Virus record (IMG/VR): IMGVR_UViG_3300019703_000001
Coordinates: 1 to 64,000 of that record
DNA length: 64,000 bases
From: a virus
Taxonomy: Duplodnaviria > Caudoviricetes
Strand: one strand, 5' to 3'
Shown here in pieces: positions 44,327 through 58,158 of this stretch. The notes below the pieces were generated by a model, which was given only the letters and a program-made list of their open reading frames with translations, ran no database searches and was not told where the DNA came from. A program made the position numbers and the translations under genes. The number at the start of each line of letters is the position of its first letter. Positions within the stretch are counted from its first letter, which is position 1.

Positions 44327-44355
44327 TTGACAAAGATAAGACAAGTTGTTATATT
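44327..44355 (+). promoter_or_regulatory. cassette promoter 1
   Basis: TTGACA-aagataagacaagttgt(17)-TATATT, extended TG; divergent TTGACA at 44278-44283. Confidence 0.88.
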
Positions 44356-44401: not shown

Positions 44402-44635
44402 ATGGAAAAAAGAATAACAAAAAAAAAGATTTCACTTGGTGTTGTAGTGGAAAGAAAAGGTTTTAGTGATTACTATTACAGTTATTGTCATGAGGGAACT
44501 TGGATGTATGCGGACAGTTTCGGCGGCCCTGTAGTTTGTATTTCTAATGCGGTTTTCCCCGGCATAGAAAATGATAAAGTATGGTGTAAAAACGACTTTG
44601 TAAATGCAATACAAAAATATTTGTCTAAGTTTTAA
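44402..44635 (+). CDS. hypothetical protein (cassette 1, gene 1)
   Basis: AGGAG SD; TAA stop lies inside the hairpin element. Confidence 0.75.
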   Translation: MEKRITKKKISLGVVVERKGFSDYYYSYCHEGTWMYADSFGGPVVCISNAVFPGIENDKVWCKNDFVNAIQKYLSKF

Positions 44636-44679
44636 CCCCTACACTCGGCCCCTTCGGGGGCTTTATGTAAGCGTTAAAA
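44630..44679 (+). repeat. 50-nt attC-like/RNA hairpin element 1
   Basis: TTTTAAC-ccc-TACA-ctcg-GCCCC-ttcg-GGGGC-ttta-TGTA-agc-GTTAAAA. Confidence 0.85.
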
Positions 44680-44700
44680 TTAAATTAAAATTTCAGGAGA

Positions 44701-45270
44701 ATGATTATGAATATCAAAGTTGAACAAAAAGAAGAAAAACTACAAATCTACACCCCTTACAATAAAAATTTTGTATCTGACTTAAAACAGTCAGTTTCTA
44801 CAGCAAAATGGTCAGGGTCCTGTTGGGAAGTTTCTATCGAAGCAAAAGAGCTCATTGACGGTCTATTAAAAGAACACTATGGATATAATCCGGGACAACC
44901 TAAAGTCAAAATTGAGATTACTGCGAAAGAAGAAATTGAAGAAATGACAGGTTCCGTAAACTTTGCAGGGTGTCCGGTAGCATATGCAAGAGGTCGGGAC
45001 ACGGGGGCTAAAGTTTGTGACGGTATCATTAAAATGTCAGGGAATATCAGATCAGGAGGATCGGCCCGATATTATAAAACAATTGTTGAAAAGGGAGCTA
45101 CTTTTCGTCTTGAAACATATAAAAACATTATCGACGAAAAAACATATGATGAAAGCATATGGGATGTCAAGACATTAAGTGAGTCCATAGATAGGGAGGC
45201 CCTTCTTTCAGAAAAAGAACAGCTTTTAAAAAGGTTAAATGAAATTGAAAAACAGTTGCAAAGTAATTAG
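44701..45270 (+). CDS. phage protein with HARP-like N-terminus and C-terminal coiled coil
   Basis: TPYNKNFVSDLK...AKWSGSCWEV; start probably 44707. Confidence 0.6.
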   Translation: MIMNIKVEQKEEKLQIYTPYNKNFVSDLKQSVSTAKWSGSCWEVSIEAKELIDGLLKEHYGYNPGQPKVKIEITAKEEIEEMTGSVNFAGCPVAYARGRDTGAKVCDGIIKMSGNIRSGGSARYYKTIVEKGATFRLETYKNIIDEKTYDESIWDVKTLSESIDREALLSEKEQLLKRLNEIEKQLQSN

Positions 45271-45278
45271 TTTTTAAA

Positions 45279-45292
45279 GCCCCTTCGGGGGC
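45279..45292 (+). terminator. short GCCCC-TTCG-GGGGC intercistronic hairpin
   Basis: Inner stem of the 50-nt element, followed by CTTTA. Confidence 0.6.
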
Positions 45293-45326
45293 CTTTACTT
45301 TTAAACCAATAAAGGAGAATAATTTT

Positions 45327-45530
45327 TTGAAAACATTTGAAATAAAATTTAAAACCGGTGTTGTCATTTTGTTTAAAGGGGCCTCTTTACTTTCGGCCCT
45401 CAAAGAGCTCGAAGGGCTAAAATGGACAATGGAGGATATTATAGAAGCAAAAGAGATAAATATTGACGACAGAATAAATGAGCTCAAAAAAGAAATTGAT
45501 AGACTGGAAAATGATAAAATAAATTTATAA
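45327..45530 (+). CDS. hypothetical protein
   Basis: TTG start with AGGAG SD. Confidence 0.6.
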   Translation: MKTFEIKFKTGVVILFKGASLLSALKELEGLKWTMEDIIEAKEINIDDRINELKKEIDRLENDKINL

Positions 45531-45534
45531 TATT

Positions 45535-45564
45535 AAAGCCCCCTAAGCAGGGGCTTTGTTTTTT
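45535..45564. terminator. intrinsic terminator between convergent units
   Basis: aaagcccc-ctaagca-ggggcttt-gtttttt. Confidence 0.8.
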
Positions 45565-48500
45565 ATTATATATTTTTTCCCGCCTATTTTTACCACTCGG
45601 GCTTTGCCTTCTTTGTTTTCGCAAAAAAATGCTTTGAGCATACTGTCCCGTTCTTTTAAAAATTGTTCACACAATGGATAAATTTCTTTCATAAAAGTTT
45701 GATGGTTTACATAAATTCCAAATTTATTTTGAGTTTCATATAAAACATTATCAGTTCCCTGCTTTATAGCATAATATTGCTCCATTGCTCTTGCAAAGGT
45801 TTCACATGTCCTTAAATAATAATTCTGAGAGCCTTCTTTGATCTCACTACTGAGTTTCAATCTGTTTCTAAAACTTGAAGCAATTTTATTTTCAATTGAA
45901 CCATCTTTATCAGATGCATAATTATAGCCAGTTTTTTCTCCAAGGTACGAATCCATAAAGTGTGTAAATTCATGTGCAAAAGTAAACCCACGTCCTTCTA
46001 TCCCGTCATCAGAAATAGCTATTGTTTTATACTTGGGAACGTAAAGCCCGACTGATTTAGAAGCATGCATTTTTTTCTTGCCTGCATACGAAACTTTAAG
46101 ATTCGATTTTTTGGCCATCTCTTTTCTGTTTCCAAATACAGAATAAAGATCTTCTATCAATAAGCCTATTTTTGTAACATCCTGTTCATCTATTTCAGAA
46201 CCATTTTGTCTTTTGACTTTAACTCCAAAAGATTCTATTAAATCATTTTTAGTCCCGCCTTCTCCATATGCAGTTTCTTTGCCTTTTTGATATGTATCTG
46301 ATTCAATATCGAACTCTTTTTGTATCCTTAAATCATTTATTTTATAATTTAATTCTTTGAGCATTGTCTGGTAATTTTCAAAAAATTGCCTGTTTGCTTC
46401 TGTAGCTCCCTCAAGTTCTTTAATCGTAAATGGCTTTTTTGTAAAATCTTGAATCATAAACGCCTGAGAGAAAGACATGAATTGAGATTTAGGTTGTACT
46501 TTTTTTTGTCGAAAAGCCTTTCTTTTAAATGGCGCATATGTCCACTTTTCCCCTTTTTCCTCGGTTTTCTTTTTTTGTTTATTATACCATTCCTCTTCTC
46601 TATCTTGATCCTGCTCATGCAATTCTTGCTGTTTTGCTCTATATAATTTACGATAATAATCCCATGTAGCAGCGAGTGTTTCGGCATTCATCAAATAATA
46701 ATTTATTTTTTCAGTTTCCTTGTCGGTATCAAGCTCTCTTTTATCTCTTGCTAGTCCTTGTCTTTGAATGGGATACCTTTTTTCTGATATTATATATTGA
46801 TTATTGTCTAATCTGACTATATCAAATTTCTGTTCCCTCCCCTTGTATCCAGCGAAAGCTGTAAGATCCATATCTGGAATATATGATGGTCTTGGAACTT
46901 GCAATATTGTATCTTCATCTGAAAGATACACGTCTTTAGGGTGAACTTTTGAATAATCTGAAATATTAAAAGTTCGAGTCGTTTCACCGGATGGAAGTTC
47001 GGATCCTCCACCAAGTATTATTTTTTGTTTAAATGACTTGGGTTTGTAATTTGGATCGGGAATGTTCATTTTTTTCACATCTTCTTTCATTATATCAGGA
47101 TAATCGGTTAGCACATTTGCAGGAATCACCTTACCATCTTTAATAGCTTTTTTTATTAAACGTTCATGTTCCTTTTTTAACTTGTTTTCACGAATAGATA
47201 ATTTTCTTTTTAAAGATTTAGCTTCTTTTGAATTTTTGTTTTCTATTTCATTATATTGTTTTTGAATATAATCCCATGATGGATTAGGTTTTAATTTATT
47301 ATCTATTTTACCATCAATATAATCTTTTAAAACGGTTTTGTATTCTTTCAATTTTTTTTCAACCCATGATCCGTAACTCACCCCTCTTTTGTTTTCGCTT
47401 TTATCTTTTGCCGCCAACTCTTCAAATGTTTTAGTATAATGGTTAACCCAATCATTTAATTGTTTAATTATAGATTCATCTCTAAAATTCATTGTTTTAT
47501 TCTTAAATTCATCAAAAGTCATCCCCCAAGATTCTTTTTTGTCCCCCATTACCTCCATGCTTTTATCTGCTCTATTTTCAGGGGTTGAATCATTTAATAT
47601 TTTAGTTGTCTTTTTGTCTTTTTTTATTCCTGCTGTAGTTTGCTGTTTTTCTTCAACTTTGGCCTCTTTTTTTACCTCTTCTTGCTTTCCATATAACCCA
47701 TGTATAAGACGCATAACAGAAAGGTTGACCTTGCTATCCTTTTTGACGACAAGTTTCTTTTCCTTCTCTTTTTTAGGTTTTTTATCAATAGGTTTTTTGT
47801 CTTTTTTTTCTGTTTTTTGTTCAAAAAATTTAGTCCATTTTTCTTTATTTTTAAAATATTCAGACAAATGATTTTTCCAGCCGTCCCATGATAGGTTGAA
47901 TTTTGAGTCAATTTTATTCTTTTTGTAATCGGCTTCAATTCGTCGCATTGCTTCACCACGACTTTTAAAAGAAAAAATATCCATTAAATTCTCTACCCAA
48001 GATGCGCCTTTTTTATCTGCTTTCTTGTCATCCGGATATGTATAATCATAACCTCCCCCCGGTTTAAGCGTTCTTTTTGTGTATTTATGCTGTTTCGCCT
48101 TCACTAAGAATTTATTCGGGGCTATTTTCAAAAGCCATTTCTTGTTGGATGTCATGTCCTGCGCCTCCTGAGCTTTTTGCAATTCGTTATTTAATCTCAA
48201 TTGTTCAAAAAAATTATCAAATAATTCATTTAATCTTTTGCGGTCTGATCCTTGAGGATATAATATTTTACCGTGGGCCTCAAGAGTCTTTTTTGGTGTT
48301 ACCAAATATGAGTTTTTTCTCTTTGCGGCTAACATTTTATCCGTTACATAAGCCTCAAAGGACCGGGCAAAGGTTTCGGCAATGTCACTAATGTCGGGAT
48401 CTTTTTCCAAGGTACTCCTGACATCTTCATTATCTATCTGACTAATCTGACTGTTGAAATTCCTTTTACTCAAATCAGCAATGCGCCGGGCTAACCGCTT

Positions 48501-49160
48501 ATATTCAGGCTCATTGTCCATGTCAATTGCCGTATGGGACAGCTCATCCCGCCCCATACCCGTAAGGGCATTGTCGATAAAATGTGCCCATTCGTGGGCA
48601 AGTGAAGCCTTTCCCTGCTTAATTAAATTTATTGTCTTTTCATTTCTATCGTACCATTTTTCTTTATGACCATATCGAAAAGCAAGCTTACCATTGCCTG
48701 ACACCTCCTGAATGGGCAGCTTTAAAATATCTGCAAGGTCTGACATCCCTGCAATTGTGCACTTTATATGGTAATCTACTTCTTTAGGCCCCAAAGAGAC
48801 ATCATGGTCAATATTCCTGATCTTAAAATCACATTGTAATTTTTCTTTCATCTGTGGGATTGTTAAATTATCAAAACTCATTCCCCCTACACGCTCAAAT
48901 TCAGGCTTTATTATTTCTTTTTTTTGCTTCTTTTTGTCATTATCATAGAAATAATTCCACTTGCCATTTGCGCCCCGGCTTCTCCGCTTATATTTTGTAA
49001 AAAAGGCTTTATTCATGGGAATTAAATTGTCATAATAATGGGGGTCTTTTTTTAGGTTTCTGAGGGCTATTCCTGCGGCAAGCATTCCGTTAGGGTTTCT
49101 TTCTAACTCTTTTTCTATGGCATCCCGTAAGAGCTGAGGGGTGAATGTATCAAATTTCAT
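45543..49160 (-). CDS. large polyvalent protein: DUF5661-like N-terminus and two LPD1-like zincin domains
   Basis: IALRNLKKDPHYY; AHEWAH...ETFARSFEAY; AHEFTH...ETFARAMEQY; start moved to MKFDTF (AGGAG SD). Confidence 0.75.
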   Translation of the reverse strand: MKFDTFTPQLLRDAIEKELERNPNGMLAAGIALRNLKKDPHYYDNLIPMNKAFFTKYKRRSRGANGKWNYFYDNDKKKQKKEIIKPEFERVGGMSFDNLTIPQMKEKLQCDFKIRNIDHDVSLGPKEVDYHIKCTIAGMSDLADILKLPIQEVSGNGKLAFRYGHKEKWYDRNEKTINLIKQGKASLAHEWAHFIDNALTGMGRDELSHTAIDMDNEPEYKRLARRIADLSKRNFNSQISQIDNEDVRSTLEKDPDISDIAETFARSFEAYVTDKMLAAKRKNSYLVTPKKTLEAHGKILYPQGSDRKRLNELFDNFFEQLRLNNELQKAQEAQDMTSNKKWLLKIAPNKFLVKAKQHKYTKRTLKPGGGYDYTYPDDKKADKKGASWVENLMDIFSFKSRGEAMRRIEADYKKNKIDSKFNLSWDGWKNHLSEYFKNKEKWTKFFEQKTEKKDKKPIDKKPKKEKEKKLVVKKDSKVNLSVMRLIHGLYGKQEEVKKEAKVEEKQQTTAGIKKDKKTTKILNDSTPENRADKSMEVMGDKKESWGMTFDEFKNKTMNFRDESIIKQLNDWVNHYTKTFEELAAKDKSENKRGVSYGSWVEKKLKEYKTVLKDYIDGKIDNKLKPNPSWDYIQKQYNEIENKNSKEAKSLKRKLSIRENKLKKEHERLIKKAIKDGKVIPANVLTDYPDIMKEDVKKMNIPDPNYKPKSFKQKIILGGGSELPSGETTRTFNISDYSKVHPKDVYLSDEDTILQVPRPSYIPDMDLTAFAGYKGREQKFDIVRLDNNQYIISEKRYPIQRQGLARDKRELDTDKETEKINYYLMNAETLAATWDYYRKLYRAKQQELHEQDQDREEEWYNKQKKKTEEKGEKWTYAPFKRKAFRQKKVQPKSQFMSFSQAFMIQDFTKKPFTIKELEGATEANRQFFENYQTMLKELNYKINDLRIQKEFDIESDTYQKGKETAYGEGGTKNDLIESFGVKVKRQNGSEIDEQDVTKIGLLIEDLYSVFGNRKEMAKKSNLKVSYAGKKKMHASKSVGLYVPKYKTIAISDDGIEGRGFTFAHEFTHFMDSYLGEKTGYNYASDKDGSIENKIASSFRNRLKLSSEIKEGSQNYYLRTCETFARAMEQYYAIKQGTDNVLYETQNKFGIYVNHQTFMKEIYPLCEQFLKERDSMLKAFFCENKEGKARVVKIGGKKYIIKNKAPA

Positions 49161-49230
49161 GTAGAGGCTCCTGATATGTATTTTTTTTATTCTGATACAC
49201 ATATTTTTTTTGTCAATAACAAATTTATTG

Positions 49231-49259
49231 TTGACAAGGATATGACAAGAATATATATT
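49231..49259 (+). promoter_or_regulatory. cassette promoter 2a
   Basis: TTGACA-aggatatgacaagaata(17)-TATATT; divergent TTGACA at 49211-49216. Confidence 0.8.
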
Positions 49260-49287
49260 GTTTTTATATTAAACAAGGGGAAAAACT

Positions 49288-49740
49288 ATGCAAACATATT
49301 TTACTGACCTTAATGTAGTCTATTCATTTAAAAATTTGGACAACAAAAGACTTGCGGGGCAGCGCCGGGAATTATGCCAATTGGTTAATTATTTGCTATT
49401 ACACCCGGATAGAACCGGCAGTTATGCAAATCACACAGTCGTCCGCATGTGGCGGGGATATGAGTCATATCTGGTAAAGGTTTATATGAAACAAATAATA
49501 ACCGAATGGGAGAACAGGGGATATAATAATATCAAGATTTTAGAGTATTACAATGATTGCATTAAATTAGTCAAAAACAAACCTGTAATTCGTCCTGAGT
49601 GGTTAGATGAAGAAATGATTACAATGTTCAAATCAAAACTCATTAGCAAGAATCCTGAATATTATCAAAAGTTATGGCCCGACGTTCCATCAGATATTGA
49701 GTTCATTTGGCCGGTTGCTGAATTAAGCAAAAAAAATTGA
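49288..49740 (+). CDS. pyrimidine-dimer DNA glycosylase-like protein (MSMEG_6728/T4 endonuclease V-like)
   Basis: MQTYF...LDNKRLAGQRRE...NHTVVRMWRGY...EWENRGY. Confidence 0.8.
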   Translation: MQTYFTDLNVVYSFKNLDNKRLAGQRRELCQLVNYLLLHPDRTGSYANHTVVRMWRGYESYLVKVYMKQIITEWENRGYNNIKILEYYNDCIKLVKNKPVIRPEWLDEEMITMFKSKLISKNPEYYQKLWPDVPSDIEFIWPVAELSKKN

Positions 49741-49768
49741 TTTTTTTTAAAAAAAATAGAGAAAAGAC

Positions 49769-49797
49769 TTGACAATGGCAAGATAAGTTGTTATATT
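49769..49797 (+). promoter_or_regulatory. cassette promoter 2b
   Basis: TTGACA-atggcaagataagttgt(17)-TATATT. Confidence 0.88.
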
Positions 49798-49837
49798 GTT
49801 AGTATACTTAATAACAAAAACAAACAGGAGACTAATT

Positions 49838-50026
49838 ATGAACGCAAATTTAACTCAATCACAAAAATTCGTAAAAGATCAACTAAGACATTCAGCCTCA
49901 ATTGATGCTCCGATAGAATTTCATAGAAACGCCATGAAATGGAGTGAAAATTATTTAAGAGAAGTATCAAAAAAATTAGGCGGATTTTTTTATGTGAAAA
50001 AAGATAAAGCTTATTTTTCAATATAA
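49838..50026 (+). CDS. hypothetical protein (MNANLTQSQK...)
   Basis: AGGAG SD before ATG at 49838; track start lies inside the promoter. Confidence 0.7.
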   Translation: MNANLTQSQKFVKDQLRHSASIDAPIEFHRNAMKWSENYLREVSKKLGGFFYVKKDKAYFSI

Positions 50027-50027
50027 T

Positions 50028-50078
50028 TTTTAACCCCTACACACGGCCCCTTCCGGGGGCCTTATGTAAGCGTTAAAA
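50028..50078 (+). repeat. hairpin element 2
   Basis: TTTTAACCCCTACACACGGCCCCTTCCGGGGGCCTTATGTAAGCGTTAAAA. Confidence 0.85.
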
Positions 50079-50100
50079 ATTAATTTAAAATAAAAGGAGA

Positions 50101-50298
50101 ATGCATATGACATCGGAAATACTACAGACAATAGTTGAACATTGGGAAAAAGCCTCAAAAGAAACTTTGATTATTTCAGTTGTTGCCTATGGAGAATTTT
50201 TAAGATTAAAAGGACTCAATGAAGAGTTTGTGGAATTTTTTCGAGGCATAAATGAGGAAGCCAAAACTCTAAAAGCTCAAGAGACGAAAAAACACTAA
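50101..50298 (+). CDS. hypothetical protein
   Basis: AAGGAG SD. Confidence 0.65.
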   Translation: MHMTSEILQTIVEHWEKASKETLIISVVAYGEFLRLKGLNEEFVEFFRGINEEAKTLKAQETKKH

Positions 50299-50458
50299 TC
50301 CCTTCTAAGTGCCCGGCTAAACCGGGTATTTAAAAGGGATTAACCCTTTATGCCACGGCAGACCTTTGGCTCACGTGGTAACATCAAACAGATATAGCAG
50401 GGCGGTGAACTTCTTTGCTAGTTCTTCGCCGCCCTGCGATTTTTTCAGGAGGTTAATT

Positions 50459-50743
50459 ATGCAAAATGCACATATACAAAATTTGACCCGTGAAGAAAAG
50501 ATCGAAAAAGCCGCAAAAAGAGCAAGATTGGTTTTGAACAAACACCATAACGGCAAAATAACAGGCATGGATTGTGTCATTGTGGAAACCCGAATAAATG
50601 GAAGAAAGCCCTTTTTCCATATGCGCTTTTTTAGGCCAAATAACTACAGACTAAAAATATGGGACAAAAACCTATATGAATGTGAAAGTCAAAATTTGTT
50701 CAGATTAGAAGATTATGAAGAAAAAAATATTGACAAAAGATAA
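50459..50743 (+). CDS. hypothetical protein (MQNAHIQNL...)
   Basis: AGGAGG SD before ATG at 50459. Confidence 0.65.
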   Translation: MQNAHIQNLTREEKIEKAAKRARLVLNKHHNGKITGMDCVIVETRINGRKPFFHMRFFRPNNYRLKIWDKNLYECESQNLFRLEDYEEKNIDKR

Positions 50744-50809
50744 GATTGAAACAACTATGTCTTATGTTTTTGCATAATTTAACCTCCTTTAAAATTTAAG
50801 TTTCATTAC

Positions 50810-50850
50810 AAAAAAGGGAGGCAGGTTATAGGTTCCTGTCTCCCTTTTTG
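50810..50850. terminator. bidirectional intrinsic terminator
   Basis: aaaaagggaggcagg-ttataggtt-cctgtctcccttttt. Confidence 0.85.
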
Positions 50851-50852
50851 CT

Positions 50853-52844
50853 TTAAAAAGCAATTTGCGTACTGCCTTCTTTTAACCATTTTCTGAGCTT
50901 CTTTGTGTTGGTCTGTTTTATTGCCCCCAAACCTTTCCAACCTTTTTGATAATTTGCCAAATATGCCGCCCTCGCTTCTTCAATATCTTTAAATCCAAGC
51001 ATTATTTTATGCTCACCAAATAGTCCCGAAACAGGATTATTCTGATTTACTACAAAGGCAAGACTTCCGTTTGTGTCACCTATAAAACAGTCAATAGGAT
51101 CAAAATCAGCCCCTTCGGTCCCGGTAATATATCCGTAATGATGTTTCATTCTGGTAATCCACTTTTTACCGTTTTCATCAAATCCGAACCTTAAAGACCC
51201 TTTCGGGTTTTCTATCCTTATATCAAGACCCTTGAAGACAATTTTACCCTTTTTATAATTGCCTGACTCTTTTTGGGCTTCGGTCGGTTCCGTATTGACT
51301 TTTATTTTATCAAGCTGTGTTTTTAAATCTTTTTCAGGATTAAAGGCTTCTTCTATTGTCTTTAATATTTTAGAGTTTTTGAGGCTTGAATTGATTGCCG
51401 TTCCGCCTGCTTCGGCCCAAGGCTTTAAATTGTAGCCCATATCGTCGATTAAAATACTTTTGTCGTCAATAACATGCTTATATTTGTCATGACAGAATAT
51501 TACATCATAAACTCCGAAATTGTCAAGAATCCAATTGATTTTATCCCGTCTACATTCGGGGATCTCATCCATAGGACTGGTTAAAAATACAATATTATAG
51601 TCATCCTTTAAAGCTTCGACAAGCTCCGCCCCTTTTTCAAGTACAGGGAGGTTATAAAAGAAATGTGGGACTGTTGAAACAAATTGTTTTATAGTAAATG
51701 GGTCATCCTTGTCAGCACTTCGATCAAATGCCTGTTTATACCCTGCTCTAAAATCAGCGACAACCCCGTCCATGTCTACATATACAATAGGTTTTGACGC
51801 AGCTTTCTGCATAGGGGTTTCAAGCATTATTTTATTATTTTTGACCGGGATAATAAAATCTTTGCCGCCTTGTCTATATTCGACACCTTTTTCCAATTTA
51901 ACTATTTTTGCACTATCCGGGACTATTGTATTTTTTACAACCTCTGAGTCTTCTGCGGACCTGACAAACCTACCTGTCGAAACATCCTGTCGGGGGTGAA
52001 AATAATTTTTTATAGCCTTTTGGTTTATTTCCCATGTAGCATTTAAGATCCTGTCTTTTGAAATTCGGTCTAAAATTTCTTTGAAAAGCGCAAACCCTTT
52101 TGGCTCTTCATGCTCTAAAATATTCATAAAGGCATTATTTATAAAAAGGCTTTTCATGTACCATTTGTAGATAGTACAGAAAAACTCTTCAACGTCTGAC
52201 CGCTCCCACTCGTATTCATAAATAGCAGACATTTTTAGGTTTTCAAATATACCCTGAAAAGCCTCTTTTTCGTCCGCCCTGACACAAGTACGCCAAAATA
52301 AGTGGCCTATTTCATGGAATACATTGTCAAGGAATCTATCAGGGGAATACATTTCAATGTTAACTCCTGCCAATGCAGAAACAATTTTTTCTTTTTTCTC
52401 CTTTTCGGTTTGCTCCATTAAATTAAGAATTACAGAGTGAGGGGGTAAAAAAGGCTCTCCCACAAAAAGTTTTTGAAGTATGGGCATTTCAGCAGGGACC
52501 GCTTGCCATTTGTCCTGCCCCATTATAATAAATGGATCTCTTTGCTGCTGAACAGGTTCAGGGGATGTTTTGTTTTCTGATTCAACAATTATTGCATCAG
52601 TGGGTCTTTGCAATCTTACCTCATTTCCTTCATCACTTGAAAAAATATCATTTCCTTTATAACCGACGATAAAATGACCGGGAATAAAAAAAGGTTTTTT
52701 GTCATTTATTAAGGCTTTTTTTAAATCTGAAACTTCATATTTTCCGAAGCTTATTTCAAAATTTTCAAGTTTTCCTTTGGTCTCTGATAAATTTTTGGAG
52801 TGGATTTTCTGGTCAGAAATTTTTTTTATTGTGGTCTTTTCCAT
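50853..52844 (-). CDS. polyvalent protein: HExxH zincin + HAD 5'(3')-deoxyribonucleotidase + InPase-like domain
   Basis: FHEIGH; VYVDMDGVVADF...LIDD; IRIENPKGS..MKHHYGYI.GTEGADFDPIDCFIG. Confidence 0.8.
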   Translation of the reverse strand: MEKTTIKKISDQKIHSKNLSETKGKLENFEISFGKYEVSDLKKALINDKKPFFIPGHFIVGYKGNDIFSSDEGNEVRLQRPTDAIIVESENKTSPEPVQQQRDPFIIMGQDKWQAVPAEMPILQKLFVGEPFLPPHSVILNLMEQTEKEKKEKIVSALAGVNIEMYSPDRFLDNVFHEIGHLFWRTCVRADEKEAFQGIFENLKMSAIYEYEWERSDVEEFFCTIYKWYMKSLFINNAFMNILEHEEPKGFALFKEILDRISKDRILNATWEINQKAIKNYFHPRQDVSTGRFVRSAEDSEVVKNTIVPDSAKIVKLEKGVEYRQGGKDFIIPVKNNKIMLETPMQKAASKPIVYVDMDGVVADFRAGYKQAFDRSADKDDPFTIKQFVSTVPHFFYNLPVLEKGAELVEALKDDYNIVFLTSPMDEIPECRRDKINWILDNFGVYDVIFCHDKYKHVIDDKSILIDDMGYNLKPWAEAGGTAINSSLKNSKILKTIEEAFNPEKDLKTQLDKIKVNTEPTEAQKESGNYKKGKIVFKGLDIRIENPKGSLRFGFDENGKKWITRMKHHYGYITGTEGADFDPIDCFIGDTNGSLAFVVNQNNPVSGLFGEHKIMLGFKDIEEARAAYLANYQKGWKGLGAIKQTNTKKLRKWLKEGSTQIAF

Positions 52845-52948
52845 TTTTTTTTGCCTTTATAAGGGATATTTTTTTTATTTTCGTAAAGATATTTTTTTTG
52901 TCAAGGATAAAAAAAATTGATTTTTTTTAAAAAAAAGTGAGAAAAGAC

Positions 52949-52977
52949 TTGACAAAGACAAGATAAGTTTGTATATT
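52949..52977 (+). promoter_or_regulatory. cassette promoter 3
   Basis: TTGACA-aagacaagataagtttg(17)-TATATT; divergent TTGACA at 52899-52904. Confidence 0.88.
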
Positions 52978-53011
52978 GTATGTATAACTAAAACAAAACA
53001 GGAGACTGATT

Positions 53012-53287
53012 ATGAACGCAACAACAAAAGAAATAAGCTTAGAAGAAATCCAGAAAAGGTATAGTAACTGGGTAACTGTACAAAGTGCCGAAACAGTTCT
53101 TTTTTTAGAAAAGAACTCAACAAGACCCGAACATATGAGGGTTTTAAAGATAGAAATTACTGATGGACATATAACACAAATTTGGTATTCAGTAGAATCT
53201 AAAAGGGATGAAAATCCTCACTGGGTAGCCATGAAAGAATATAAAACAGATAAAGAAGCTGTTTTGGATTGTGTCAATTGGTATTAA
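53012..53287 (+). CDS. hypothetical protein
   Basis: AGGAG SD. Confidence 0.75.
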   Translation: MNATTKEISLEEIQKRYSNWVTVQSAETVLFLEKNSTRPEHMRVLKIEITDGHITQIWYSVESKRDENPHWVAMKEYKTDKEAVLDCVNWY

Positions 53288-53289
53288 GA

Positions 53290-53339
53290 TTTTAACCCCT
53301 ACATTCGGCCCCTCCGGGGGTCTTGTGCAAGCGTTAAAA
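53290..53339 (+). repeat. hairpin element 3
   Basis: TTTTAACCCCTACATTCGGCCCCTCCGGGGGTCTTGTGCAAGCGTTAAAA. Confidence 0.85.
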
Positions 53340-53366
53340 TTAAAATTAAATTTCAGGAGAATCATT

Positions 53367-53513
53367 ATGACACTACAACAAAAAGCAAACTTGCGACAAC
53401 TGGAAATCAGGGAAAATGAAAGGTTACTCAGGGACCTTCCCTATCAAATCAGAATTCGGCCAAAAAGGAAAAAAATAAACAGCCTTGAACGTCGAATCAT
53501 AGCAGCAAAGTAA
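53367..53513 (+). CDS. small basic protein (MTLQQKANLR...)
   Basis: AGGAG SD before ATG at 53367; longer track ORF runs through the hairpin. Confidence 0.55.
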   Translation: MTLQQKANLRQLEIRENERLLRDLPYQIRIRPKRKKINSLERRIIAAK

Positions 53514-53521
53514 CACAATAG

Positions 53522-53557
53522 GCCCGGACCATAAAAAGTTCGGGCTTTATTTTTTTG
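53522..53557 (+). terminator. intrinsic terminator
   Basis: gcccgga...ttcgggc followed by T tract. Confidence 0.7.
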
Positions 53558-54326
53558 AAAAATCCTTCACAACTTCCTTTGCAAAATCCCCTATTATCTC
53601 ACCTATCCGCTTGTTGACATATTTAAGAACCGAAGGGAAAACGGGTTGAGGTGATTTATTCGGATACTCCCACCCTTCACTGTTTTCCGTAACAACTCTA
53701 AATATACCATACTGAGCTTGAAATTTTTTTGTATTATATTTAGTTAGCCCTGAAACATCCTCTCCGGTTGGCAGTGTTCCCGCTTTTAATCGGCCCCCTG
53801 ATTTGACAATTTTATGCATCTCTGTGGTCATTTCTCTTTTACCAAAGTGGCGCGCCATTTTTCCAGAGTCTTCATTTCGAGGAGTGGCAACAGGGAAAGG
53901 AACTATTATATATTTGGTCCCGTCTTTTGAGGTTTTCGCTTTGTCACTTGCTAAAAGAGCGTCCCTGATAGACCATGTATCAACACCCTTTTCAACCATC
54001 ATTGCAAACATTTCAAAAGGCTTTTTACTTCCTTTAGAATCAATTTTAGATTCATCAAGGTAAACCTCCCCCTCAATTCCTGCATATTCGTAGGCTATAG
54101 CCTGAGCGTATTTACGGCCCCATCCCCCGGAGTTATGAGCATCTGTGCGCCATTTGTCAGCAGCTTCACGGGTAATTAGCCCTACAATGCTAGGCATAGA
54201 CTTGTCAACCACTTCAACAAGTTCAGCGTAAAGGGCCTCAGAAGCAACCATCCCTGCGGCCTCCAGACCATCAAGAATTGACTCTAAAATTGTTTCATCT
54301 TCTATATCAAAAATCATAATAATCAT
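53547..54326 (-). CDS. virion neck/tail-completion-like protein
   Basis: AMMVEKG, KYIIVPF..ATP, FRVV..NSEGWEYP pattern of SPO1-like virion proteins; start probably 54317. Confidence 0.55.
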   Translation of the reverse strand: MIIMIFDIEDETILESILDGLEAAGMVASEALYAELVEVVDKSMPSIVGLITREAADKWRTDAHNSGGWGRKYAQAIAYEYAGIEGEVYLDESKIDSKGSKKPFEMFAMMVEKGVDTWSIRDALLASDKAKTSKDGTKYIIVPFPVATPRNEDSGKMARHFGKREMTTEMHKIVKSGGRLKAGTLPTGEDVSGLTKYNTKKFQAQYGIFRVVTENSEGWEYPNKSPQPVFPSVLKYVNKRIGEIIGDFAKEVVKDFSKK

Positions 54327-54355
54327 ACTTTAAAAAAGTGAAAAAAATTTGTCAA
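54327..54355 (-). promoter_or_regulatory. leftward promoter of back-to-back module
   Basis: TTGACA-17-TAAAGT. Confidence 0.7.
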
Positions 54356-54379
54356 ATACAAAAAAAATGCAGAAAAGAC

Positions 54380-54408
54380 TTGACAAAGACAAGACAAGTT
54401 GTTATATT
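54380..54408 (+). promoter_or_regulatory. cassette promoter 4
   Basis: TTGACA-aagacaagacaagttgt(17)-TATATT. Confidence 0.88.
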
Positions 54409-54434
54409 GTATGTATAACTAAAACAAAAGGAGA

Positions 54435-54692
54435 ATGATTATGAGCGCAAATAACACTGTTACTGAAATCAATAAAGCTCAAAGGGCGGGAGTAAAAGCT
54501 TTTAATAATGGCAAGGATCGTGCACCTGCTTTGAATCAAGCTTTTTTAAAAGAGGCTTGTTCTTCTAAAATTAATACAATAGCATTATTAGATGCATATC
54601 TTCACGGATGGGACATTGCCAACTTGGCTAATGGAGAAACAAATCAAGACTTGCCAAGTGTTATTGAGCTTAAAAGAATATTAAGTTTTTAA
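54435..54692 (+). CDS. hypothetical protein
   Basis: AGGAG SD; TAA stop inside truncated hairpin element. Confidence 0.75.
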   Translation: MIMSANNTVTEINKAQRAGVKAFNNGKDRAPALNQAFLKEACSSKINTIALLDAYLHGWDIANLANGETNQDLPSVIELKRILSF

Positions 54693-54721
54693 CCCCTACA
54701 CCCGGCCCCTCCGGGGGCCTC
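54687..54721 (+). repeat. truncated hairpin element 4 (right outer arm missing)
   Basis: TTTTAACCCCTACACCCGGCCCCTCCGGGGGCCTC. Confidence 0.75.
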
Positions 54722-54755
54722 TAAATTACAAAAAAACAATTTCAGGAGAAATAAA

Positions 54756-55415
54756 ATGACACAAACAAATCAAGATAATACTTACAAAAAATATTGCCCA
54801 AACGTCTTTGTTGCACAATGCCCCGAAAAACACGAAAAGGGTGACTTGATTATCCTTAAAACCAAATATGGAAAAGAGAATGAGTGTGAAGTACATAACT
54901 TAGTAGCTGAAAAGAATGGCTTTTATTACTATTCTATCACCCGAACCGATGGTTTTAATAGTCAGGAGAGAGCAAAAAGAAGGGCTGAACGACTAAACGG
55001 TTGGGCTGATTCTGCTGACAAAAGAAGTGCCGAATGGATGGAAAAGAGTCAAGAAGGAAAAGACTTTTTATCCCTTGCTGAACCTATTAAAGTCGGTCAT
55101 CATAGCGAAAAAAGACACCGGGCTTTAATTGATCGCAATTGGAACAGGATGGGCAATGCTGTAAAAGAACAGGATAAGGCGGAAGCCTACAGGGACCGGA
55201 TGGAATATTGGGAAAGCATGGCAAAAAAGATTGACTTATCAATGCCTGAAAGTCTGGAATTTTTCCAAATTCAGCTTGAAGAAGCTATCGAATACCACAA
55301 GGGATTAAAAGACGGCAGCATTAAACGTGAACACTCTTACTCCCTTACTTATGCAAAAAAAAGAGTAAACGAACTCAAGAAAAAATGTAAAACAGCTGAG
55401 ATTCTATGGGCGTAA
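54756..55415 (+). CDS. DUF3560-like protein
   Basis: EPIKVGHHSEKRHRA. Confidence 0.8.
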   Translation: MTQTNQDNTYKKYCPNVFVAQCPEKHEKGDLIILKTKYGKENECEVHNLVAEKNGFYYYSITRTDGFNSQERAKRRAERLNGWADSADKRSAEWMEKSQEGKDFLSLAEPIKVGHHSEKRHRALIDRNWNRMGNAVKEQDKAEAYRDRMEYWESMAKKIDLSMPESLEFFQIQLEEAIEYHKGLKDGSIKREHSYSLTYAKKRVNELKKKCKTAEILWA

Positions 55416-55422
55416 TCAATTA

Positions 55423-55440
55423 GCCCCTTCGGGGGCTTTT
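55423..55440 (+). terminator. short GCCCC-TTCG-GGGGC hairpin with T tract
   Basis: gccccttcgggggctttt. Confidence 0.6.
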
Positions 55441-58129: not shown

Positions 58130-58158
58130 TTGACAAAGATAAGATAAGTTTGTATATT
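58130..58158 (+). promoter_or_regulatory. cassette promoter 5
   Basis: TTGACA-aagataagataagtttg(17)-TATATT. Confidence 0.88.

Follow-up and report, generated by a model that had tools for sequence, protein, structure and literature searches.

Four small rightward early operons of an uncultured sediment phage carry, between their first and second genes, copies of one unit in which a stop codon, a hairpin, an AT-rich spacer and a ribosome site follow one another. Our preferred reading, to which we assign a probability of about one half, is that this unit is a portable linker that acts in the sense mRNA and serves in addition as a crossover patch. The phage is represented by a record of 85,078 bp (IMGVR_UViG_3300019703_000001), of which positions 1 to 64,000 form the window analysed here. 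As a phage feature the element is of an ordinary kind; its layout is what is unusual.

A repeated unit between the first two genes

The hairpin occurs four times, in each case on the plus strand (44630-44679, 50028-50078, 53290-53339 and 54687-~54722). A 17-nt core pattern recovers these four copies with none expected by chance (100 shuffles), in agreement with the original prediction, which had listed the same four starts and called the last copy truncated; a search of the whole 85,078-bp record gave no fifth copy. All copies lie behind gene 1 and ahead of gene 2, in the same orientation relative to transcription, and 224-306 nt 3' of a near-identical early promoter. The promoter (TTGACA-N17-TATATT) is embedded in a conserved module of ~90 nt that is near-identical across operons; it spans 44327-44355 (+) in cassette 1, and sequence matches place the same module at 49769-49797, 52949-52977, 54380-54408 and 58130-58158 (all +). 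The leftward promoters differ in appearance from this rightward module.

Gene 1 of cassette 1 (44402-44635, +) encodes 77 residues; the gene 1s of the other cassettes (49838-50026, 53012-53287 and 54435-54692, all +) are related neither to it nor among themselves. Gene 2 of cassette 1 (44701-45270, +) corresponds to phrog_18108; its counterparts lie at 50101-50298, 53367-53513 and 54756-55415 (all +), the last with a DUF3560 assignment. The gene 1s and most of the gene 2s belong to no named family. The stop codon of gene 1 falls within the 5' arm of the hairpin in copies 1 (44633-44635) and 4 (54690-54692), confirming that in two copies the stop is part of TTTTAAC, and lies 1-2 nt 5' of the arm in copies 2 and 3. 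On the other side of the hairpin the predicted AT-rich stretch and Shine-Dalgarno sequence are also borne out: the spacer is followed by a GGAG ribosome site in 4/4 copies, and this strong site lies 16-17 nt beyond each hairpin. Spacer, ribosome site and gene 2 start codon occupy 44680-44709 (+) behind copy 1, with equivalent units at 50079-50109, 53340-53369 and 54723-54758 (all +), copies 1-3 share the conserved unit, and copy 4 has it in part.

Genes 2 and 3 have other hairpins behind them, or none. At the junction of genes 2 and 3 in cassette 1 a simple GC hairpin (45279-45292, +) combines the same core and a UUCG loop with a U-rich tail and a ribosome site, and a second hairpin of this kind lies at 55422-55437 (+). 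UNCG-capped GC hairpins occur only in the rightward cassettes and always in the sense orientation. The hairpin after gene 2 of cassette 2 (50289-50344) is unrelated, with ~21 layers and without a U tract.

Some other ideas about this arrangement were rejected. A promoter inside the AT-rich spacer was discarded because the spacer holds no -35/-10 pair resembling the phage's own promoters, and the gene 1 products were discarded as hairpin-binding partners because they are mutually unrelated. Ribosome bypass of the T4 gene 60 type is countered by the codon preceding the copy 1 stop, which has no in-frame landing match, and by gene 2 having its own ribosome site and start codon.

Fold of the hairpin and the strand it favors

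The full hairpin is built from three stems: an outer stem of 7 bp (TTTTAAC/GTTAAAA) followed by one isolated C-G pair, a middle stem of 4 bp (TACA/TGTA) and an inner GC stem of 6 bp whose loop is UUCG, UCCG or a 5-nt variant. Together these form 23 stacked layers with 16-19 Watson-Crick pairs, interrupted by internal loops (1x1, 1x1 and 3x3) that are symmetric in each full copy and on both strands, so that folding upholds both the stems and the loop symmetry of the original prediction. Copy 1 has a UUCG loop, copy 2 a loop with one extra base, and copy 3 a UCCG loop and four substitutions; copy 4 retains the 5' arms and the GC hairpin only, the middle and outer 3' arms being missing. The sense RNA folds of copies 1, 2 and 3 have energies of -18.9, -20.7 and -16.8 kcal/mol and z-scores of -4.1, -5.4 and -2.5. 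Substitutions among the copies affect 3/36 paired as against 5/15 unpaired columns (P = 0.04), and two of the three paired-column changes convert G-C to G-U on the sense strand.

As RNA the opposite strand is predicted to be more stable than the sense strand in all three full copies (-24.6, -30.3 and -20.3 kcal/mol), and the antisense strand is also predicted to be more stable as DNA. It folds better because two fixed C-A oppositions turn into G-U there. Copy 3 had been described as forming G-U pairs on the mRNA strand only. This holds for its changes in layers 15 and 19, but the T-to-C change at 53328 leaves an A-C opposition on the mRNA strand and creates a G-U pair on the other. Assignment of a strand from the G-U pairs was dropped as ambiguous; in the outer stems the test is ambiguous or points to the antisense strand. 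The proposal of an RNA element is supported by the UNCG loops of the sense strand and by the steadier paired columns, but not by the strand test of the outer stems.

If the antisense strand were the functional one, it would act in read-through RNA from the leftward (late, head-module) genes or as minus-strand ssDNA. The minus strand folds better by 3.5-9.6 kcal/mol as RNA and by 4-6 kcal/mol as DNA (z-scores of -4.1 and -6.6), and the T-to-C change of copy 3 retains pairing on that strand alone. However, the bidirectional terminators at the convergent gene ends (45534, 50809 and 53520), which have long U tracts, should halt leftward transcripts before the hairpins are reached. In addition, UNCG loops form on the plus strand only, and G-U pairs in the GC stem are confined to the plus strand both here and in a relative at 77% protein identity, a feature that supports the sense strand. 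We consider an antisense function very unlikely.

The inner GC hairpin with its short U-rich tail could instead exert transcriptional control as a partial intrinsic terminator. Mainly a gene 1 message of ~270-350 nt (immediate early) would then be made, and gene 2 onward would depend on read-through, caused either by a ribosome that halts within the 5' arm or by a phage antiterminator loaded at the hairpin in a nut/put-like manner. The gene 1 stop lies inside the 5' arm or at most 5 nt from it in every copy, so that a terminating ribosome would overlap the hairpin. Copies 1 and 2 have a moderate U content in the tail 3' of the GC stem, and a rough terminator score, whose value depends on how the stem is delimited, rates their inner hairpins as borderline, level with the simple hairpins. 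A canonical terminator occupies the equivalent position in a distant relative (L028), and further down cassettes 1 and 4 there are terminator-like simple hairpins, which an antiterminator would have to pass. Against termination, the compound hairpin has no proper U tract. The tails of copies 3 and 4 offer only a poor U tract, as do those of the 77% relative, where A runs come after all four hairpins. Pairing between the 3' and 5' arms plays no part in termination, and no antiterminator gene was identified. Nor did we see a mutually exclusive alternative structure, and a classical attenuator was rejected on that ground. Partial termination, which the score does not distinguish from a role in the mRNA, is a possible role for the element but, in our judgment, an unlikely one.

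Relatives, age of the outer stems and gene exchange

The element is restricted to the present phage and one relative that is 95-98% identical to it, and its carriers constitute one rare sediment phage lineage. Viral contigs scanned for the hairpin core or for the promoter module yielded only this close relative. A pattern scan of metagenomes returned the known relative and four further matches, all to one unrelated GC-rich coding sequence and attributable to chance; among cultured phages the region has no near match and the 93-nt module only chance partial matches. Rfam produced no match to the window at gathering score and only chance-level matches in a permissive search of 49.7-50.9 kb. No RNA run is listed among the public runs that contain the phage.

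In the close relative, copy 3 is absent: cassette 3 has another gene 1 and no hairpin, with only the spacer and ribosome site remaining. The truncated form of copy 4 is present there as well, and a replacement gene 1 of this relative also has its stop in the hairpin 5' arm or at most 5 nt from it. The promoter module is retained in the relative at 77% protein identity. Three of its cassettes carry, behind gene 1, different GC hairpins that again have no U tract and lead into an A-rich spacer and a ribosome site; two of these hairpins contain sense-strand U-G pairs. Distant relatives are without four of the five islands, and in more distant relatives a single antisense island also has a hairpin 3' of gene 1. 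A stable hairpin of different sequence is a recurrent feature of the gene 1/gene 2 position in relatives at 45-77% identity.

Five full copies were used to build a covariance model, which found no match in relatives at 23-77% protein identity, and the outer stems are absent in all relatives at ≤77%. Since the 77% relative has simple GC hairpins only, the outer stems are young, and recent duplication or gene conversion, not selection, may explain why the copies conserve them. The original prediction had named, as the outcome that would count against it, simple and complete termination at the inner hairpin with no conserved outer stem in relatives. The outer stem is indeed unconserved beyond the closest relative; complete termination is unsupported, there being no proper U tracts. 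The truncation of copy 4 and the hairpin-free cassette 3 of the relative indicate that not every site needs the full rod.

These observations also bear on the idea that the hairpin is a passenger with no function of its own, carried as part of a duplicated operon scaffold or as a gene-converted palindromic repeat, its regular position reflecting common descent of the cassettes. Such an origin would fit its confinement to one narrow lineage, the 85-100% identity of the copies, which extends to unpaired bases, and its loss from one cassette and truncation in another with no visible consequence. It would account less well for the recurrence of stable hairpins of other sequence at this position in relatives at 45-77% identity and for paired positions being less variable than unpaired ones, and we regard it as improbable.

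In an alignment of the window with the 95-98% identical relative, the repeated modules account for 5.7% of the region but for 8 of 20 mosaic block ends (P = 8e-6). Compound-hairpin modules contribute three of the eight (50110, 53338 and 54683; P = 0.005), both simple GC hairpins coincide with breakpoints, and the same breakpoints are seen in contigs from other sediment samples. Judged from these alignments, related phages have exchanged genes at the element in the manner of the PeSL cassettes discussed below, and the proposal that the repeat is tied to variable genes is well supported. Promoter modules and simple hairpins are no less prone to breakpoints, and in the compound element these occur at one end or the other, a spread that fits homologous exchange and not a fixed crossover point. 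It is highly improbable, in our estimate, that the element is a dedicated crossover signal in which the folded single-stranded bottom DNA strand is read by the phage's own recombination machinery. Were it so, this would be an independently evolved attC analogue in a lytic-type myovirus, with accessory-gene insertion targeted behind early promoters.

The hairpin had first been likened to integron attC sites. On that reading a tyrosine recombinase would recognise one folded DNA strand and insert or remove gene cassettes there. Both are imperfect palindromes behind a gene, often over its stop codon, and both are associated with variable genes; the arms TTTTAAC and GTTAAAA agree with the core sites RYYYAAC and GTTRRRY at 6/7 positions each, the outermost being wrong on both arms. 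From base to tip, the element's two stems with an internal loop between them and its variable end are reminiscent of the attC R box, spacer, L box and terminal structure; the bottom strand gives the best DNA fold, gene swaps break at the element, and the phage has a tyrosine recombinase. This sole recombinase (1812-2711), however, is a generic Phage_integrase match and not an integron integrase, the model TIGR02249 giving 28 bits against a cut-off of 265. Typical attC sites measure about 57-141 bp and end promoterless cassettes in a co-oriented array. The present element has a length of 50 nt, symmetric loops and no extrahelical bases in its full copies on either strand, in line with the shortness and missing extrahelical bases already held against attC. 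It follows gene 1 only, not each gene, in operons with their own promoters, and is accompanied by neither IntI nor attI. The dif-like sites of the phage (11.4-15.3 kb) share no sequence with the hairpin, and breakpoints fall equally at other modules and at either end of the element. The comparison with attC fails on these grounds, and we consider an attC-like site extremely unlikely.

Proposed role in the mRNA and known counterparts

In the mRNA-level reading that we prefer, the linker would separate cistrons 1 and 2 of early accessory operons transcribed by host RNA polymerase (sigma-70 type). The element is probably transcribed through, its role is probably played at the RNA level, and a nuclease is probably involved. 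The UNCG-capped GC stem would form a very stable hairpin in the sense mRNA with no proper U tract, and its likeliest action would be post-transcriptional, as a barrier against 3'-to-5' decay by which the relative amounts of gene 1 and gene 2 message are set. The two added helices would extend this stem to a rod of ~23 layers, about two turns of dsRNA, a plausible RNase III-type processing site comparable to those between early genes of T7 and SP82. The ~85-nt unit would at the same time serve as a passive homology patch, because it is repeated nearly identically, and either of the two genes would be swapped there between related phages.

RNase III processing sites lie between the early genes of T7 and have asymmetric internal loops. 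Early mRNA of the Bacillus phage SP82 also carries RNase III-type processing sites (Panganiban and Whiteley 1983, as cited in PMC4838370). In both cases, as proposed for the present phage, a number of irregular hairpins that resemble one another and span about two helical turns are intercistronic in host-transcribed early polycistronic mRNA, 5' of strong ribosome sites. The capsid protein of the present phage is distantly related to the SPO1 group, of which SP82 is a member. The present hairpins differ from the T7 sites in their symmetric loops and from both in sharing no sequence similarity with them, and one copy is without the lower stems. The layout of such a site, a repeated intercistronic irregular helix of ~two turns, is found in four operons with sigma-70-type promoters, and host RNase III may cleave there.

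According to what Tuerk et al. reportedly described in 1988, C(UUCG)G hairpins occur in intercistronic regions of T4 mRNA and are linked to mRNA stability and termination. Both phages have between cistrons a GC stem that ends in a UUCG or UCCG tetraloop, but here it stands within a longer conserved module with two more helices.

The closest precedent for the gene exchange is the PeSL (promoter-early stem-loop), a repeated motif of T4-type phages that combines an early promoter with a stem-loop (Arbiol et al. 2010, PMC2839356; Comeau et al. 2014, PMC4122927). PeSLs share with the present modules a repeated sigma-70-like early promoter with an AT-rich upstream region, a repeated stem-loop with G/C runs, flanking small genes of unknown function in variable regions, and breakpoints of insertion, deletion or replacement between close relatives inside the motifs. 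They differ in that promoter and stem-loop form one composite intergenic unit, whereas gene 1 lies between them here, and in that the present hairpin is a three-stem, 50-nt rod with no U tract, fused to a ribosome site; the PeSL stem-loop has been shown to terminate transcription, and mini-circles are reported to arise between PeSL motifs (PMC2839356; PMC4122927). To call the element uncharacterised, as originally proposed, overstates the case, since its behavior matches published PeSL cassettes and classic intercistronic hairpins of phage early mRNA.

The phage offers a case outside the T4-like phages of short repeated regulatory modules used as joints for accessory-gene swaps. Its design is split, with a promoter module ahead of gene 1 and a module of stop codon, hairpin and ribosome site behind it, so that gene 1 or gene 2 can be replaced singly. 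If the RNA role is correct, the linker would be a compact, portable intercistronic element that sets relative expression within an operon, and a simple GC hairpin would have grown into a two-turn rod over a short evolutionary distance. The phage itself is not T4-like, its capsid protein showing a distant SPO1-like affinity, and there is a weak hint that its host belongs to the Spirochaetota.

Cassette layout and fold of the compound hairpin

The phage, whose 85,078-bp record (99% complete by CheckV) has the window as its first 64 kb, is a myovirus encoding a tail sheath, baseplate and major head protein. Most of its genes are oriented leftward, and the head module is broken up by five short rightward islands (43.8-59.5 kb). 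Every rightward island is headed by a conserved module of ~90 nt containing a perfect -35 element, a conserved 17-nt spacer and TATATT (plus strand, 44327, 49769, 52949, 54380 and 58130); a looser version lies at 49231. Within the cassettes this promoter module is followed by gene 1, the hairpin module and gene 2, with 224-306 nt between promoter and hairpin. The four gene 1 products show no kinship with one another or with two replacement gene 1s of the close relative (a 53-kb phage contig with a 95-98% identical backbone), and no named family was found for any of the four. The 17-nt spacer of these early promoters (44333-44349, 49775-49791, 52955-52971, 54386-54402 and 58136-58152) has a conserved AAGAYAAGAYAAGT-like core, partly retained in L025, a JGI contig with 77% protein identity, and also occurs on the minus strand at 1453-1481 of the window and at genome position 72098-72126; it may be a regulator binding site.

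The four hairpin copies of the original prediction are real, and were confirmed in the window sequence at 44630, 50028, 53290 and 54687 (plus strand). A 17-nt core pattern matches these four and one simpler hairpin, with no match in 100 shuffles, and the whole genome holds no further copy of the compound form. The fold of a full copy consists of an outer stem of 7 bp, a single isolated C-G pair, a middle stem of 4 bp and a GC stem of 6 bp. The internal loops between the stems are symmetric, and the cap is UUCG, UCCG or a 5-nt variant; copy 4 retains just the GC hairpin and the 5' arms. In copies 1 and 4 the 5' arm includes the gene 1 stop codon, which in copies 2 and 3 precedes the arm by 1-2 nt; the AT-rich spacer and GGAG ribosome site downstream of each hairpin are likewise conserved. 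Cassettes 1 and 4 each contain, between genes 2 and 3, a simpler hairpin (45279-45292 and 55422-55437) that shares the GC core and UUCG loop and has a U-rich tail.

Strand and function of the hairpin

Of the two possibilities originally raised, an integron attC site or an RNA element, the first is rejected. The hairpin has 0 extrahelical bases, a length of 50 nt and 6 of 7 core-site positions matched, and there is one hairpin per operon, each operon having its own promoter. The sole tyrosine recombinase of the phage scores far below the integron-integrase cut-off, and no sequence is shared between the compound hairpin and the dif-like sites at 11.4-15.3 kb.

Among distinct full copies, which hold few variants, 3 of 36 paired columns vary versus 5 of 15 unpaired columns (one-sided Fisher P = 0.04), and two of the three paired changes convert G-C to G-U on the sense strand. 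UNCG-type tetraloops occur on the sense strand only, and GC hairpins with such caps are confined to the rightward cassettes. Predicted stability, by contrast, is higher for the antisense strand both as RNA and as DNA, where two fixed C-A oppositions become G-U pairs. In copy 3 one change retains pairing on the antisense strand only, whereas two others do so on the sense strand only. Sense mRNA is provisionally taken as the likelier functional form.

On this reading, plausible but unproven, the compound hairpin would act on the sense mRNA as a portable intercistronic linker in which the GC/UNCG hairpin forms a barrier to decay. RNase III-type processing sites are known from T7 early RNA. The extended form of ~23 layers would likely be such a site, comparable to those in the early RNAs of T7 and SP82. 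For SP82, processing of this type is cited in PMC4838370. The main rival is partial termination coupled to gene 1 translation, which on sequence alone is inseparable from the linker reading. U tracts are strong in the convergent-end terminators of the islands, whereas the compound hairpin lacks such tracts. An unrelated second hairpin of ~21 layers without a U tract follows gene 2 of cassette 2 and fits the linker and processing idea.

This second hairpin (50289-50344, -29 kcal/mol) is the first part of a 160-nt non-coding stretch (50289-50458) between cassette 2 gene 2 and a 94-aa gene starting at 50459. It is followed by a segment conserved in L025 and then, immediately upstream of the ribosome site, by a terminator-like hairpin with a T run. 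The stretch, which has no match in Rfam, may be a cis-regulatory leader.

Mosaic junctions at the repeated modules

Mosaic block ends were mapped in an alignment of the window with the close relative. The cassette 2 replacement covers gene 2, beginning at its start codon after the hairpin module (50110) and ending at 50296. That of cassette 3 takes in both gene 1 and the hairpin, between the promoter leader (52991) and the hairpin 3' end (53338); the relative carries another gene there and no hairpin, leaving the spacer and ribosome site alone. For cassette 4 the replaced segment is gene 1, bounded by the promoter leader (54428) and the hairpin 5' end (54683). The two simple hairpins are sites of additional replacements and of a 600-nt insertion (45324 and 55443/55458). 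Together the modules make up 5.7% of the region yet hold 8 of the 20 block ends (P = 8e-6), three of which fall in compound-hairpin modules (P = 0.005), and identical joints are present in contigs of two other sediment samples. The proposed tie to variable genes is therefore supported.

Since breakpoints lie at either hairpin end and equally at promoter modules, their spread fits homologous exchange over a fixed crossover point. The recombination role would be a by-product of the repetition. The junction pattern is that of the promoter-early stem-loops (PeSLs) of T4-type phages, where small genes are shuffled by recombination between repeated promoter/stem-loop motifs (PMC2839356, PMC4122927), and the link to variable genes is best classed with the PeSL-like shuffling cassettes, as a variant in which the modules are split. 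A DUF3560 gene following hairpin 4 in cassette 4 (54756-55415) occupies a different cassette in L025 (2691-3332), where it adjoins an SSB gene in the cassette on the far side of the 477-aa gene, a move between cassettes. A mosaic joint also falls inside coding sequence: the 1219-aa polyvalent protein (45543-49202, minus strand), with an LPD1 domain and two HExxH-like motifs, is replaced over 45606-47644 in the close relative, where it has 1871 aa.

Relatives and host

Searching viral and metagenome contigs for the hairpin core recovered only one other phage, the 53-kb close relative, which was also the sole hit of a promoter-module scan of viral contigs; remaining metagenome matches to the core are chance matches within unrelated coding sequence. 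A covariance model of the five full copies found no match in relatives with 23-77% identity in their neighbouring proteins. L025, the most useful relative, shares the promoter module and likewise has interleaved cassettes. Its simple GC hairpins differ from one another and stand behind gene 1 in three cassettes and behind the DUF3560 gene; all lack a U tract and lead into an A-rich spacer and ribosome site, and two contain a sense-strand U-G pair. At ~45-56% identity, relatives carry just one antisense island, again with a hairpin after gene 1, which is a canonical terminator in one and a compound hairpin of different sequence in two. The old trait is thus a stable hairpin at this position, and the 50-nt three-stem form is this lineage's recent elaboration.

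The phage is present in public freshwater-sediment metagenome runs. Its capsid protein shares only 25-29% identity with the capsid proteins of SPO1-like phages and a few others, with Leptospira phages among the distant matches, and a neighbouring head-module protein (259 aa) has homologues of 35-43% identity in two Spirochaetota metagenome bins (L036 and L038), one on a contig of 157 kb. Together these matches give a weak hint of a Spirochaetota host.

Antisense accessory islands in the head module number one in the 45-56% relatives (L009, L018, L027-L029) and up to five in this phage (43830-59417) and its two nearer relatives, each headed by a copy of the same back-to-back promoter module; the islands seem to have multiplied through duplication of this module.
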